From positions 1 through 59,585 of the forward strand of contig CAWBHS010000045.1 in the NCBI GenBank assembly GCA_963788655.1: DNA of 59,585 nt, given 5' to 3'. This stretch comes from an uncultured Verrucomicrobiae bacterium (GTDB lineage Bacteria; Verrucomicrobiota; Verrucomicrobiia; Limisphaerales; JAFGQR01). Of the stretch, positions 1 to 5,430 are shown one piece after another; positions within the stretch are counted from its first letter, which is position 1; every line of letters begins with the position of its first letter. A program made the translations under genes and the position numbers. The notes under the pieces are model-generated. The model was not told the DNA's origin, did not search any database, and was given only the letters and a program-made list of their open reading frames with translations.

Positions 1-51
1 GTGTATTGCTGCGGAGCGAAGCGGAGCCAGCAACTACACCCCTGGTTGAAC
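1..51 (-). other. attC-like recombination site (truncated by window edge)
   Basis: Minus strand reads GTTCAAC (RYYYAAC)-CAGGG-GTGTAGTTGCTG..CTTCGCT..CAGCAATACAC; arms 1-11 and 28-39 pair with one extrahelical base (pos 34). Confidence 0.6.
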
Positions 52-329
52 AAGCCCGAACGACGCGGCGGTTCGCCAGAGCCTATGGCACTTGTATTTG
101 AGCCGAAGGACTAGCTCGATGGGTCGGAGCGGCGCTTTTGAAGGAGAGCCCGGGAACGATGAAGGAGATGGGAAGCGGGCCGAACGTAAAGTGCGCGCGG
201 TTTAGTGGAGGTGGAGGCTGGGAAAAGGTGGCTTGGAGGAGAGGTTTCCCCGATTCGACCGCCGAGGGGCTCACGCGCCGCAAGCGCTTCCGCCCGCGGA
301 ACCTCGGATTGTTCTGAGGCGGGGTATTC

Positions 330-1463
330 ATGCGGCGATGGCAGCGGCGTCAACCGCGGTGGGATCGGGTGGCGTGGCGGTTGCCGCGGGGGCGCGTTTC
401 CGTGCCCATCGGCCAACCGACGCGAGGAAGCGCGTCGGCCCGCCGCCACCGGGACAGGGCGGAGTGGAACGGGAGGAAGGGGCCACCGTGGGCTCGCCCA
501 ATTGCCCGGCAAGCCACTGTGGCACTGCACGCGCAGACGCTGGGCCTTGGCGGTGGGATGACAGAACCCGTAATAGCGGACCGAGCGCAGGCCTCGCGGC
601 AGGACGTGCCGCAGGTAGCGGGCACAACTCGATGCCCGGCAACGTCAACTGTGCGAGGCGATCGTGATCGCGTCCTTCCACCGGAAGGTCACCGTCTGGT
701 CCCGACCGCCACGATGCGTTCGTCGCGGATGGCCGTGCGCGCCACATAGGTGCCGAGGTATTTCACGGCGGGAACCCCCGCGCCGACCGGTCTGATTTGG
801 ACATTCCACTCCGTGGACCAGACGGCCGGATCGACGGGCCAGTTGTTTTCCTTGAAGCGCCGGTAGCAGTGCTGACGGAAGGCGGCTTTCAAATGCCCCA
901 GGAACACCAGGCGATCCTCGTTCTTGCCGCGGACGAAGTGGCCGCCGGCATCCAGCCCCGCGCCGGGCACCAGGCAGTGGAGGTGCGGATGAAACTCCAG
1001 GCGCTGGGTCCAGGTATGCAAGACGGCGGTGAAGCCGCTGCGGTGGGCGCCCAGGTTTTTGTCGGCGGCCAACTTTTCCGCAAGGCGCCGGAGACGGCGT
1101 GAAAGAAGAGGTCGTAAGCCTGGGGGCGTGGGGCCCGAAGAACTGCCCGCGCAGTTCGGCCGGGAGCGTGCAGGTGCCCAGGAAGTAGGGAGCGCGCACG
1201 AGCTGGGCCAATCCCCGCTGGACCCCTCGGGCGGTGGCTTGGCGGCCACACTGCGGACAGGCTTTGTGGTTGCAGGAATGCCAGGCGAAGTGAACGCGGC
1301 CGCAGGCTTTGTCTGCGCAGGCAAAAGCCTGCCCGCCCAAGGCCGGCGTGCGGCAATGGGTGAAGGCCCAGAGGGCGCGGCGTTGTTCCTCCGCCAGCGG
1401 CGGATGGGTTTCCAGGAACGCGGGCAGGAACCGACGCCGCGCCCCGATGACGGTGGCGCTCAC
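330..1463 (-). pseudogene. IS91-family transposase (Zn-binding + Y2 domains), frameshifted
   Basis: CRTPALGG..C..CG..HSCNHKACPQCG Zn region; HTW..HPHLHCLVPG HUH motif; KYLGTYV YxxxY; pieces lie in several frames; 3' end approximate. Confidence 0.85.
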
Positions 1464-1487
1464 GCGAGCGGACGCGGAGGTAGCCGA

Positions 1488-2496
1488 CCACCGCGGCAGC
1501 CCGCGGCCCAGCGCGGCCATGAGCTGCCAGGCGTCCTGGGCGCTCTGGTGGGTCAAGTGCAGGTAGATCATCGTCGAGGTGATCTGCTTGTGCCCCAGCA
1601 ACCGTTGAATGGTGGGCCGGTGGGCGCCCGCCTCGAGCCAGTGGGTGGCAAAACTATGGCGGAAGGAATGCAGCGAGGCGGCGGGGATGTTCAATTGCTT
1701 GCGGGCCAGAATCAATAGCCGCGGCAACGAGGAGGGCGGCATGGGACCGGTGGCGGCGTGCATGCGCGCGGCCAGCGCCTGGGGCGTGTGCGCCCCGCGG
1801 CCGACATTGGGAAAGAGCAACAGGGGATGGCGGTGGAACGCCCAATAGGCCCGCAGCTCCTGATAGAGGGACGTGGGCAACGGCAGCATCCGATCCCGCT
1901 GGCCCTTGCCGCGGCGAATCCGCAACTTGTTTTCCCGGCCGTGAACAGCGTGAATCGTCAGGCCCAGCATTCGCTCAAGCGCAAGCCGCAGACATAGATG
2001 AGTTTGATGGGCGTGCGATAGCGGCGCAGGCGGATGAAGGTCAGCAGATCGTGGACTTGCGGGCGGGTGAGCACCGCGGGCAAGCGGTCATGATCCTTGG
2101 CGCGGATCCGGGCAAAGACCTGCCAGTCGGGATGCGCCAGGTGCTCGACAAAGAACAGGCGCGCCGCGGCCAGGGCCTGGCGGATGGACTTGGGCTGCCA
2201 GTGCTTCTGGAGCTTGACCATCAGGAAATAGTCGCGCAGTTGGTCCTCGGTGAGCATGCTGGGGTCGGCGCCGAAATGCTCGTGGATCAGGCGCACCTGC
2301 CGGTAATAGGCGGGCCGGGGCGATTGGCGTCATAGCGCAGGGCCAGCACGTCGGCGAAGCGGGCCAGGCACGGGTAGGGATGCTGGTAATCGACCGGGTT
2401 GACATACTCGCGCCCGGTCGTGCGGATGGCGGGGAGGTTGGGGTTGAGGTTGGTTTTGGTGGGGTTGCCATTCGCGGCATGTTTTTTAGTTTTCAT
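1488..2496 (-). pseudogene. Tyrosine recombinase/integrase, frameshifted, stop apparently lost
   Basis: YVCGLRLSE, GKGQRDR, HSFRHSFATH, LLGH..ITSTMIY motifs spread over ORFs 2287-2496, 1958-2296 and 645-1970. Confidence 0.85.
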
Positions 2497-2591
2497 GCCC
2501 CGCCAGCATGATAGATTGCAGCCATGTCGCTGACCGATAATTTGCCGCCAAGCTCAACCGCGTCCGACCACCTTCGCCGCGCAGCGGCTTT

Positions 2592-2710
2592 GTTCAACAA
2601 GTTGGTGGAGATGAACCGCCGCCCCGCTTCTCCGTTCAACGCTGGGCAGCAGTTTGGGAAAGCCTCGTGAGTCCACCGTCCCAGTCGGCGGCGGTCGCTC
2701 AGTTTCGGTC
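2592..2710 (+). other. attC-like site with degenerate or missing R' end
   Basis: GTTCAAC at 2592, then AACCGCCGCC (2614) pairing with GGCGGCGGT (2687); no GTTRRRY at the expected right end. Confidence 0.6.
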
Positions 2711-2926
2711 CCCATCGACGCACCGCCAAAATTCCGCTTCGGTTAGCGGCTTTACGGCGCCACTTTCGATCTCATGATCACGCCGTTCTGCCTCGGCCAG
2801 TTCCTCGGCCTCCGAACACTCCTCCGTGAGCGGTGGCATGGAATCCAACAACGACTCGGTTATAATGACACGCTGTGCCACTGGCAAGGCGAGCACCGTC
2901 TTTTGGATTTCCGCGATTCCAGACAT
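2699..2926 (-). CDS. Putative addiction module component (antitoxin, TIGR02574-like)
   Basis: 75 aa; LALPVAQR..LLDS..EAERRDHEIESGAVKPLT pattern. Confidence 0.75.
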   Translation of the reverse strand: MSGIAEIQKTVLALPVAQRVIITESLLDSMPPLTEECSEAEELAEAERRDHEIESGAVKPLTEAEFWRCVDGDRN

Positions 2927-3150: not shown

Positions 3151-3244
3151 GCCTAACCAAACCGGATGCACCGAACCCCGCGATTGCGCTGCTGTTGCAA
3201 GCTGGGCGTCAGGGGCGCGGGATCGCTGATTCGCATTGTCGTGC
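3151..3244 (+). other. attC-like site (degenerate R')
   Basis: GCCTAAC..GGATGCACCGAACCCCGCG ... CGCGGGATCGCTGATTC..GTCGTGC imperfect hairpin. Confidence 0.6.
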
Positions 3245-3270
3245 AGGAATCGCTTGCGTAGGCTGCGACC

Positions 3271-5430
3271 ATGCAAAAGCCTATCGCCCATTTCACCGCT
3301 TGCATTTTCGTCTGGACCGCCGCGCTGATCATTGGGGCTGGTGCCGCCGCCGCGGAATCAGTCCGCCATCCCGAACCGGCTCGCACCAAAGGCTGGAGTT
3401 GGAAGACGCCGCCCGACGAGGTGCGCCCCGCCTCTGGCAAGCGCAGCCACGTGTTTTACGTCGGGGAACCGGTAACGTTCAAATTGGGCGGCGCCGCAGC
3501 GACTTACGAAGTCCGCAATTATTGGGGCGACCTTGTGGACCAGGGACCGGCTGGCGCCTCCGTGACACTGCCCGTGACCGAGCCGGGTTGGTATAAGCTT
3601 TACGTTTATGGGAAGGAAGTCCGCAAGGAATGGGGCGACATCGTCGGGACCACCATGTTTGTCATTTTGCGGAACGACCCGCGCTTTCCGCCGCTGCCGG
3701 CGCGGTCCGTGTCCGGAGGCAGTTATCCCTCGATGGACGAGCCGATGCGCGGAGTGCTCGGCATTGGCCCGCAACGGCACGCCGCCCGCAATCTGGACAA
3801 GTTGGATGACGTGTTCAAAGCCCTCGACGGCGACGTGGCGCTCGACACGAACTACTACCTGCCGTTCGACCCGGCGCGGAAACGCGCGTTGATGATGGCT
3901 TTCCCGAACGGCACAAAAGGCAAGCTGGACGCCGTGCGCCAGGTGGTTGAACGCTTCAAGGACCAGGTGCGCTATTGGGAGCCGCGCAATGAACCCAACT
4001 TCGGCGCAAGCGGGGCGGCGTTCGTCACGAATGAGTTGAAAGATTTCTACGCGACAGTGAAAGCGGTCGATCCAAACCTGAAGGTGATGGGGCCTGGCAC
4101 CGTCAGCGTCGGGCCGCAACTCCAAGGTTGGTTGGAGGACTTCTTCAAAGCCGGCGGCGGACGTTATCTCGATGTCTTTTCGTTCCACGTTTATAACGGC
4201 ATCAACGGCGACCTGTTTCTTGCGCGCAAAACGATGGACACGCTGCAAGCCACGCTCGCGCGTTATGGTTTGGAAAAGATCGAGAAATGGCAGACCGAGC
4301 AGGGCTTTTTCGCCTCGGTTTATGGCTCGTATCAGCCACGGCTCCAGGCGCGCTGGACGATGCTCGAGATGATGGTCTTCGAGCAATACGGCTTTCCGCG
4401 GGAGCACAACCATCTGTGGTACGACAAGAGCCACGGGTTCTGGGACGTGCCCACTTGGTGGGAAAACGATGATGGCTCGCTCAACCCGGTGGCCGCCCTG
4501 ATGCGCGTCTTCGCGGAGGAACTCTATCGGGAAGACGTTCACGCGCGCGCTCGATTTCGGCAAGGACGGCAACAAGCTGTATCTCGGCAGTCTCTTCGTC
4601 GGCGGAGGCAAAACCGTGGCGGCGTTTCATGAACGCCGGTTGTGGGATGGGCCGGGTCGAATTGCGCGTCCGTCGAGCAAACAAACTCCAGGTCGTCTCG
4701 GCGTTCGGAGTCTCCTCCGAGCTGCCGGTGGTCGATGGCACACGCGATCCTTAAGGTGCCGGAGATTCCCGTCTATGTGGAACTGAGCGACGGGCAGGAA
4801 ATCGAAGTCGTTCCCCAGAATTGGGGCCGGAATCTCGCGCGCCTGCCCGGCGTGACGGCTACCGCCTCCGGCACCGGGGCGCATCCGGTGGATCCGAAAA
4901 TTCCGAATAGCATTGATAAGATCCACAACGGCGAATACGAAAACTGGTATTGGGCGCAAAAGCCGGCCGCGCAAGAATGGATGGATGACACCAAGGGCTT
5001 TCCCGCCTGGGTCGAACTGCGGTTGCCATCGGCGATGCCGGTCGGGCGCGTCGTGGTGTTTTGCGGGGTTCCCTGGCAATGGCGCGGGACGTTCCTGGAT
5101 TACGAATTGCAATACGAAAAGGACGGCCAATGGGTGACGATCCAGCGAATCACCGAGCCAACCAAAACCTTTGGTGTTTACTCGCCGCCCACCCGCACAA
5201 CGGTCGATAGCTTTTTCTCCGACCGTTGGATTTTTGAGAACGTCTTTCCACCAGTTACGACCTCCAAGATTCGTCTGCTGGTCCACGACACGACCTTCGG
5301 CGGCGGCGCGACCAGCAATGTCCCCGAAGCCGGCGGCCAGACTGGGCCGCATCAAATTACCCTGCGCGAAGTCGAGATTTACGGCTCGGCATCGGAGCGG
5401 ATTTCCGGAACTGCCGCGAAGCGTGAGTAG
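3271..5430 (+). CDS. Secreted clan GH-A glycoside hydrolase (GH39-like) with C-terminal F5/8-type (discoidin-like) domain; frameshifted near 4530-4740
   Basis: Signal peptide; WEPRNEPN acid/base and WQTEQG nucleophile motifs; C-terminal WVELRL..FPPVTTSKIRL..LREVEIY. Confidence 0.65.

Follow-up and report, generated by a model that had tools for sequence, protein, structure and literature searches.

Integrons are the main gene-capture devices of many bacteria, and both the origin of the integrase IntI with its attC sites and the range of other enzymes that read attC hairpins are unsettled. Two kinds of mobile DNA, the IS1111-attC elements and the group IIC-attC introns, insert site-specifically into attC as parasites of integron arrays; the enzyme of the former is a DEDD transposase and that of the latter a ribozyme/reverse transcriptase, both unrelated to the enzymes considered here. 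The introns sit opposite to the cassette orientation (PMC9229058). Within the IS91 family of rolling-circle elements, the end termed terIS consists of a subterminal palindrome adjoining a cleavage tetranucleotide, GTTC (as in IS801, IS1294 and IS1294b) or CTCG, the end termed oriIS holds one or two palindromes at a target GTTC, CTTG or GTCC, and only a bottom-strand single-stranded circle is able to insert (PMC13181058). One subgroup of this family, with ISShvi3 among its members, carries a tyrosine recombinase (TR) gene upstream of the transposase gene, and these recombinases form an integron-like subgroup in which the IntI insert is missing (Smyshlyaev et al., 10.1101/542381). Both the subgroup and the kinship of its recombinase with IntI are already known. 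We describe here a member of this subgroup in a stretch of 59,585 nucleotides from an uncultured Verrucomicrobiae bacterium (assembly GCA_963788655.1, contig CAWBHS010000045.1), which we call the window. Positions 1-2598 (minus strand) are a decayed copy of a mobile element of about 2.6 kb, and comparison with related loci indicates that the element carries an attC-shaped site of its own and is fused to the R'' box of a host attC, in an orientation opposite to that of the cassettes. An attC terminus belonging to the element, the R'' target, a fixed orientation and the closeness to intI were all undescribed in the literature that we searched, which left ISfinder/TnPedia and the figure supplements of PMC9229058 aside. 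The sole published remark that we found is a passing mention of ISShvi3 beside an attC (PMC9229058), and the available text of PMC9345347 and PMC7923331 deals with IS91 in general terms only.

The element holds two genes, for a TR and for a Y2 transposase, in the same order as in ISShvi3 and its like; these are the only genes of the unit, and the enzymes of the IS1111-attC elements and group IIC-attC introns are not among them. The IntI/Xer-like TR pseudogene (1491..2496, minus strand), located with Pfam and tblastn, is broken by two frameshifts into pieces in three frames (2496-2311, 2320-1967 and 1985-1491 by tblastn), which are 97.6-100% identical to P0001, an intact protein of 336 residues from other DNA. 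Its Phage_integrase match has a value of 3.6e-16, and Phage_int_SAM_4 reaches 25.5 bits, slightly below the cut-off of 27. The transposase pseudogene of the IS91 family Y2/HUH type (513..1454, minus strand) was delimited by Pfam and by tblastn with an intact protein from a related locus (L017), which aligns in four pieces in frames -1/-3/-2/-1. The reading frame changes at least three times, one internal stop codon interrupts it, and about 14 residues are deleted. Still, the broken frames match Zn_Tnp_IS91 (PF14319, 2.3e-17, 63.2 bits, cut-off 26.3) and Y2_Tnp (PF04986, 3.6e-21, 76.5 bits, cut-off 20.9), and by eye the zinc-binding N-terminus and what we take to be the HUH (HPHLH) and Y2 (YLGTY) motifs are readable. 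The TR is thus nearly identical to an intact protein despite its two frameshifts, and the transposase is far more decayed; the state of the TR reflects either a very recent inactivation or indel errors of the assembly.

An earlier note on this DNA had described a recombinase and HUH gene unit with imperfect inverted ends, without remarking that both genes are broken. The inverted arms (42-58 and 2585-2601, 17 nt, 82% complementary according to the repeat finder), the motif pair and the two genes stand, whereas the CGCCGCG read in the left arm is without conservation in relatives. The 59,585 bases contain exactly two copies of the motif TTGTTCAAC, at 45-53 (minus) and 2590-2598 (plus), but by count alone this pair is not beyond chance, at least two copies being found in 14 of 100 shuffles. 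Likewise, the hairpins of the window fold no better than shuffled sequence (z -0.2 to +0.8), which makes folding unusable as evidence, and their reality therefore rests on the comparison with related loci.

For this comparison one genome per species was scanned, giving 174 confirmed places, of which 77 loci were kept, mostly metagenome-assembled genomes labelled Verrucomicrobiota. The TR family is very large (2,028 proteins at E <= 0.001 among 7,703 candidates), and many of its members are located on contigs of about 2.6-3.0 kb. Where at least 1,200 nt of downstream sequence were available, the transposase gene follows within 400 nt in 60 of 62 TR copies, in an order identical to that of the window. 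The coding DNA of the relatives is about 70% identical to the window, and the intact copies L017 and L022 retain by eye the recombinase catalytic residues as well as the HUH and double-tyrosine motifs of the transposase (HPHIH and YLSAY/YLGAY). Fragments were also seen, with the 3' end only in L026 (3162-3430, 270 nt) and L030 (2820-3259, 441 nt) and the 5' end only in L044 (572-977, 406 nt). No attC or GTTC feature was found at the breakpoints of these truncated copies, and so they do not help to choose between recombinase and transposase as the acting enzyme.

The hairpin at the left edge of the window is, as these loci show, a constant part of the element, that is, its own attC-shaped site (attC_el). 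The window contains the first four-fifths of it (1..51, minus strand) and its edge removes about 12 nt. From the inside outwards it reads R'' (GTTCAAC, 51-45), a spacer (44-41), the L'' arm (40-27) with one extrahelical base, a loop (26-12) and L' (11-1); beyond the edge would follow the rest of L', a TTTATT-like spacer and an outer GTT. The preceding 3' untranslated part of the element (52..512, minus strand, delimited by blastn to the loci) ends in CGGGCTT (58-52), which lengthens the attC_el stem once the ends are joined in a circle or tandem. Window positions 1-58 are 86-98% identical in most loci that carry them, well above the 70% or so of the coding DNA, and lie about 450 nt behind the transposase gene, and (C)GGGCTT-GTTCAAC is the conserved sequence of the 3' junction. 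A complete attC_el was found by eye in 34 places, always directly after ...GGGCTT and always ending in GTT, with the same layout in 34/34: GGGCTT, GTTCAAC, a first stem arm with the extra base, a loop that varies in length, the second stem arm, a T-rich spacer and GTT. Past the outer GTT identity is 0.43/0.89/0.64/0.71 (nGGC) and then falls to background over 28 distinct junctions; the search pattern imposes the GTT and part of the stem, not this later drop. The stem shows compensatory changes in 4 of its 11 pairs and no broken pair, and the diverged subfamily L040/L041 retains the layout with a different stem sequence. Overall length ranges from 56 to 107 nt. In L005, L008, L013 and L035 it is 105-107 nt, as compared to 56-66 nt elsewhere, due to a 40-nt loop insertion with a GC-rich stem of its own, like the variable terminal structures of ordinary attC. 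The site has the layout of an attC, with pairing R'' (RYYYAAC) and R' (GTTRRRY) boxes, an L''/L' stem and a variable loop, and its extrahelical base lies on the arm expected of a bottom strand if the antisense strand is cleaved. The covariance model R1, built from host attC sites, finds attC_el in reverse direction only (4/4; 25.9, 21.7, 15.5 and 11.9 bits, the last two weak), and attC_el is thus opposite in polarity to the host sites, in agreement with the earlier note, for which the two flanking hairpins were unrelated in sequence and opposite in direction.

A filled and an empty site were found on plasmids, where tblastn recovers distant copies whose TR is about 32% identical. In the Escherichia coli IncC plasmid RCS41_p (NZ_LT985243; L079 3297-5635) the two genes are found in a class 1 integron, where they separate aadA1 from qacEdelta1 and run antisense to the cassettes, with the same termini, a hairpin of its own and annotated genes that are apparently intact. 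Compared with the empty aadA1-qacEdelta1 site of R100, a unit of 2,336 bp that includes the hairpin is inserted exactly at the GTT by the aadA1 stop codon, with GTT on both sides and nothing else changed. On a Salinivibrio plasmid a copy is likewise surrounded by an array of small genes in antisense direction. The one E. coli IncC plasmid shows that such elements do reach clinical class 1 integrons. Close copies are rare in plasmids: a megablast search of 72,556 plasmid records with the E. coli copy as query gave only two matches, the full one in NZ_LT985243 and one on a Shewanella plasmid that covers the last 250 bp (the 3' end) at 94.8% identity.

The opposite end of the element is a conserved 5' terminus of 23 nt (2576..2598, minus strand), which consists of GTTGAAC (2598-2592) followed by AAAGCCGCTGCGCGGC, the latter including the small palindrome GCCGC-nnn-GCGGC. 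Across the loci the terminus is GTTGAAC-(T/A)AAGCCGC-nnn-GCGGC, its GTT being common to element and target, and read outwards it becomes GCCGC-nnn-GCGGC-TT(A/T)-GTTC. GTTGAAC was found at 65 of 66 5' ends and GCTGAAC at the remaining one. Columns +15 to +22, which the search pattern does not force, are conserved at 0.90-1.00 except for +16 (0.53), and further inward conservation falls to 0.4-0.68. GTTGAAC is the perfect complement of the R'' box GTTCAAC 2.6 kb away. When the ends are joined, in a circle or a head-to-tail tandem, they consequently form one complete attC-like site with perfectly complementary R boxes. Such joints occur naturally, since head-to-tail copies (L044/L045 on one chromosome, and L060) share one hairpin in which both R boxes and the GGCTT/AAGCC beyond them pair; the tandem junction L044:516-590 has a fold of -21.7 kcal/mol (z -6.0), a value that none of 200 shuffles attained. 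The inverted ends of the earlier note are the two halves of this joined-end attC stem. Two observations concern the 5' end. Within the loop of the host attC, window positions 2617-2640 (plus strand) hold 24 nt that are 75% identical to the terminus at 2575-2598 (direct repeat D6), and this could be the footprint of an older insertion or a chance match in GC-rich DNA. In L073 (3735-3805) the site upstream of the 5' end is an inverted hairpin of the element type with symmetric AATAAA/TTTATT spacers, not a host-type attC, and the element there may have inserted in the site of another copy.

The hairpin to the right of the element is, by comparison of the loci, a variable host attC belonging to an integron cassette array. 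This target site of the adjoining cassette (2592..2722, minus strand) has arms at 2701-2687 and 2623-2608, a long loop and a proximal R box common to the 5' end of the element, and its degenerate distal R box overlaps the stop codon of an antitoxin-like open reading frame (ORF). The 9-bp stem ACCGCCGCC/GGCGGCGGT corresponds to the centroid fold, and model R1 matches the site in a short reading (2592-2640, minus, 21.2 bits, E 0.007). In most loci a different attC-shaped site lies directly upstream of the 5' end each time. With an anchored arm alignment, 28 of 57 junctions score above the 95th percentile of random-GTT controls. Where a search demanded paired R boxes in the minimum-energy fold, only 14/58 gave an upstream attC; the proximal R box being a hybrid, this demand is too severe. 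In an alignment of 18 variable upstream sites 90.1% of the cells pair and 16 of 19 pairs show compensatory changes, a degree of pairing that none of 500 shuffles reaches (slid controls 24-46%). The constant feature at the insertion is the AAC/GTT triplet of the attC R box. The remnants at the 3' junction are GTTAGGC and GTTCGGC (four each), GTTGGGC and GTTCGCC (two each) and others, and the four bases abutting the 3' end vary accordingly on the other strand (GCCT, GCCG, GCCC, GGCG, GTCT and others); the conserved tetranucleotide (GTTC, CTTG or GTCC) that abuts oriIS in IS91-type insertion was not found. The proposal of the earlier note that the element targets attC and joins at the AAC/GTT triplet is supported by the filled and empty plasmid sites and by the variable attC at the 5' junctions. 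Its placement of both hairpins outside the element, with conservation ending at GTTCAAC and variable attC sites beyond, holds for the 5' end, where alone attC sites are enriched. At the 3' end conservation runs through the hairpin to the outer GTT, and this flanking hairpin is constant, as the comparison of RCS41_p with R100 also shows.

Within the host arrays the orientation is fixed, the element being inverted relative to the cassettes and co-oriented with intI. With E <= 0.01 as threshold, model R1 gives 119 matches across the 77 loci, of which 118 (18 training rows of the model among them) are on the element-sense strand. These matches flank the element on both sides, with up to 15 sites in 9 kb (L018). 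In the host sites two extrahelical bases, separated by 6 bp, lie on the arm that faces the distal AAC; under the rule given in PMC5027507 the bottom strand of the host attC is then the element-sense strand. Of 47 junctions, 37 have as the largest ORF next to the host site one that runs antisense to the element, three (tandem copies) have one in the sense direction and seven have none, such ORF calls being noisy in GC-rich DNA. A canonical intI lies downstream on the same strand in nine loci (L004, L006, L012, L022, L030, L047, L065, L066 and L073), 835-2,361 nt from the 3' junction where both could be located, and 6 of 16 loci with at least 2.4 kb past a recognized 3' junction have one. In five loci its TIGR02249 score exceeds the cut-off of 265 (389.8, 375.2, 373.0, 290.1 and 277.7); in L012, L030, L065 and L073 the gene is partial or broken, with frameshifts in L065 and L030. 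A single small antisense ORF separates element and intI in L006, L022 and L065, which places the element in the first cassette. Taken together, attC polarity, extrahelical bases, flanking ORFs, intI and the class 1 integron show that the element is joined in inverted orientation at the AAC/GTT of the host R'' box, between the ORF of a cassette and its hairpin. It does not occupy the place of an integron cassette, which would be at attI or an R' box in array orientation. The arrays belong to ordinary integrons with their own intI and show one polarity on both sides of the element, and with host polarity uniform in 118 of 119 matches there is no sign of the two divergent arrays of the earlier note or of cassette capture.

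The TR itself is, judged by its sequence, IntI-like and of the closest kind of relative of integron integrases. Its best NCBIfam match is TIGR02249, with 141.4 (P0001), 152.2 (P0064) and 147.6 bits (P0117) in two stretches each, below the cut-off of 265 that the host IntI of the same loci pass with 277.7-389.8 bits. The closest solved chain is IntI4 (2A3V, E 1.4e-25), ahead of Xer proteins. BLASTP aligns the TR with IntI of L006 at 31% identity, with 40 gap positions concentrated at the IntI-specific segment. The recombinases of IS91-family elements with an upstream TR likewise fall beside IntI without the insert (10.1101/542381).

The element resembles several known systems. With IS91, IS801 and IS1294 it has in common the Zn_Tnp_IS91 and Y2_Tnp domains, an upstream small palindrome with GTTC and a downstream hairpin, the lack of a target duplication beyond the shared triplet, and tandem and truncated copies; the palindrome plus GTTC at 65/66 of its 5' ends is terIS-like as a sequence pattern (PMC13181058). 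Unlike these elements, it has an extra IntI-like recombinase gene, its joined ends make a complete attC, and its target is a structured attC R box, not a bare GTTC or CTTG, with a variable adjoining tetranucleotide. With integron cassettes and IntI it shares the R''/L''/loop/L'/R' layout with an extrahelical base and a variable loop, the GTT boundaries of the R boxes and a recombinase that is closest to IntI both by family and by solved structure, however at 141-152 bits against a cut-off of 265 and lacking the IntI-specific insert. In contrast to a cassette, it carries two genes including its own recombinase and enters R'' inverted. Like IS1111-attC elements and group IIC-attC introns it inserts site-specifically into attC as a parasite of integron arrays, but those bring neither an attC of their own nor an IntI-like recombinase.

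We propose that the element is a self-mobilizing, cassette-like parasite of integrons that brings its own attC, is copied as an HUH circle and is joined to R'' by its IntI-like recombinase, a reading to which we give about half of our confidence. The boundaries of the unit, the R'' target, the fixed orientation and the complete attC of the joined ends are read off the aligned loci; the steps that follow are put forward conditionally. The mobile unit consists of the 23-nt terminus (GTT)GAAC-AAGCCGC-nnn-GCGGC, the TR and Y2/HUH genes and the attC-shaped hairpin that ends in GTT. The HUH transposase would produce a single-stranded circular copy by rolling-circle replication, as would fit the bottom-strand circles of the IS91 family (PMC13181058). 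On the antisense strand attC_el would then take the fold of a bottom strand, its extrahelical base facing the AAC, and the recombinase would exchange this strand with the top strand of a host attC at the AAC of R''; in sedentary integrons it is the attC top strand that is found on the lagging-strand template (25 of 30 SCIs in PMC5371416; also PMC11023631). Replication would finish the insertion, and the inserted element, being part of the host cassette, could travel along with it.

Several points weigh against this proposal. The window copy is dead, so that its local biological effect is small and it is the family that gives the finding its value. Canonical attC sites have two or three extrahelical bases, attC_el a single one, and its scores with the host-attC model are weak. 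The TR is without the insert of the IntI catalytic domain that contacts extrahelical bases, which makes its action on folded single strands an assumption. Complementarity between the distal host R box and the R' remnant at the 3' end is not significant, with 38 matches against a permutation mean of 35.7 +/- 3.0 and 2,692 of 10,000 permutations as high or higher; in several rows the automatic procedure had picked the wrong distal box. The joints could, as far as sequence goes, be the work of either enzyme, because a recombinase cut at AA|C and an HUH cut at RYYY|AAC, only two bases apart within the triplet that both sides share, give the same junctions, which therefore cannot discriminate. IS91-type rolling-circle transposition might accordingly do all cutting and joining, with the palindrome and GTTC as terIS, the hairpin as oriIS, cleavage of the host top strand after the RYYY of R'', and the recombinase as an accessory for multimer resolution or excision. 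By analogy the 5' end, read outwards as GCCGC-nnn-GCGGC-TT(A/T)-GTTC, resembles the terIS of IS801, IS1294 and IS1294b, attC_el could be an oriIS, and the family inserts through a bottom-strand circle alone (PMC13181058). The target tetranucleotide at aadA1 would be GTCT, and the tandems (L044/L045, L060) and the 5'-truncated copies that keep the 3' end (L026, L030) look like leftovers of rolling-circle replication. L039, with GCTGAAC at its 5' and GTT at its 3' junction, fits a cut after the triplet better than one at G|TT unless it mutated later; the AAC retained in its distal box does suggest a point change. On the other hand, the would-be target tetranucleotide varies (GCCT, GCCG, GCCC, GGCG, GTCT) while the AAC/GTT triplet is invariant, the complementarity of GTTGAAC and GTTCAAC and its GGCTT/AAGCC extension at the joined ends would be left unexplained, and there would be no reason for the strict linkage to an IntI-like recombinase in 60 of 62 copies. 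We consider a transposase acting on its own rather unlikely, though the main competitor.

It is also conceivable that the unit is a passive gene cassette whose attC is recognized by the host IntI, both genes being mere cargo. Its boundaries are cassette-like, the 5' one being TTGAAC and the 3' one an attC whose last base is G, canonical intI is nearby in nine loci, ISShvi3 next to attC has been described as a new gene cassette structure (PMC9229058), and low-frequency top-strand recombination by IntI1 does give inverted insertions (PMC5027507). Such events are, however, rarer by orders of magnitude (PMC5027507), whereas insertion at R'' in inverted orientation, not at attI or R' in array orientation, is seen in essentially every case (118/119), and the joint conservation of both genes, the 23-nt terminus and the hairpin across phyla argues for self-encoded mobility. 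This makes a passive cassette improbable in our view. The model of the earlier note, with GTTCAAC ends on both sides each fused to a foreign attC, capture of cassettes and two divergent arrays, has in its favour that GTTCAAC is present at both ends as the R'' box of an outward-facing hairpin and that in L073 a second, inverted attC of the element type abuts the 5' end. It is contradicted by the constancy of the 3' hairpin, which moves with the element and for which the filled and empty sites refute the model, and by host attC sites that share one polarity on both sides in arrays with their own intI; we regard it as very improbable.

Going further, self-mobilization as proposed above could be the mark of autonomous selfish cassettes that parasitize integrons across phyla, replicating as HUH circles and using an IntI-like TR without the insert to recombine their own attC with the normally silent top strand of host sites, which we suggest tentatively. 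If so, the element would be embedded in a host cassette and could ride along whenever that cassette is mobilized by the host integrase. The closest relatives of IntI would in that case work on attC-shaped hairpins which also serve as origins of rolling-circle replication, and the hairpins and recombinases of HUH elements might be the stock of the attC/IntI system, or the reverse. The family joins a second, simpler recombinase lineage to attC-shaped sites with built-in production of single strands, and it strictly prefers the attC strand and the R box that integron integrases avoid. Strand choice at attC thereby becomes testable with a natural counter-example. For annotation pipelines, the element gives a reason for extra or inverted attC sites and for repeat contigs of 2.6 kb in Verrucomicrobiota assemblies. 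Relatives occupy integrons of several bacterial phyla. Some copies (L001, L011, L024, L029, L031, L035, L037, L038 and L057) lie on short contigs or in bins labelled, in this order, Competibacteraceae, Acidobacteria, Bifidobacterium, Pseudomonadota, Terriglobales, Anaerolineales, Ramlibacter, Alphaproteobacteria and Flavobacterium, labels that reflect either a wide spread or mis-binned repeat contigs.

Beside the element, the window retains a short piece of the array. A second host attC (3151..3250, minus strand) has the same polarity as the first and a proximal R box GTTAGGC (3157-3151); model R1 matches it at 3159-3231 (minus, 27.4 bits, E 3e-4), and it is the last attC in the window. Over the 59,585 bases the model gave no credible match besides these two host sites, and what the window shows is thus the far end of a cassette array extending further to the left. 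The antitoxin-like cassette ORF (2699..2926, minus strand, 75 residues) matches Unstab_antitox (PF09720, 3.8e-08, 33.7 bits, cut-off 23.3), and no recognizable toxin partner was seen with it. It is co-directional with the element and inverted with respect to the array, unlike most cassette ORFs in the related loci. About 20 nt past the last attC begins an ORF of 453 residues with a signal-peptide-like N-terminus (3271-4632, plus strand), which lies on the cassette strand and is followed by no further attC; either this is a last cassette of large size, or the array here borders on the chromosome.

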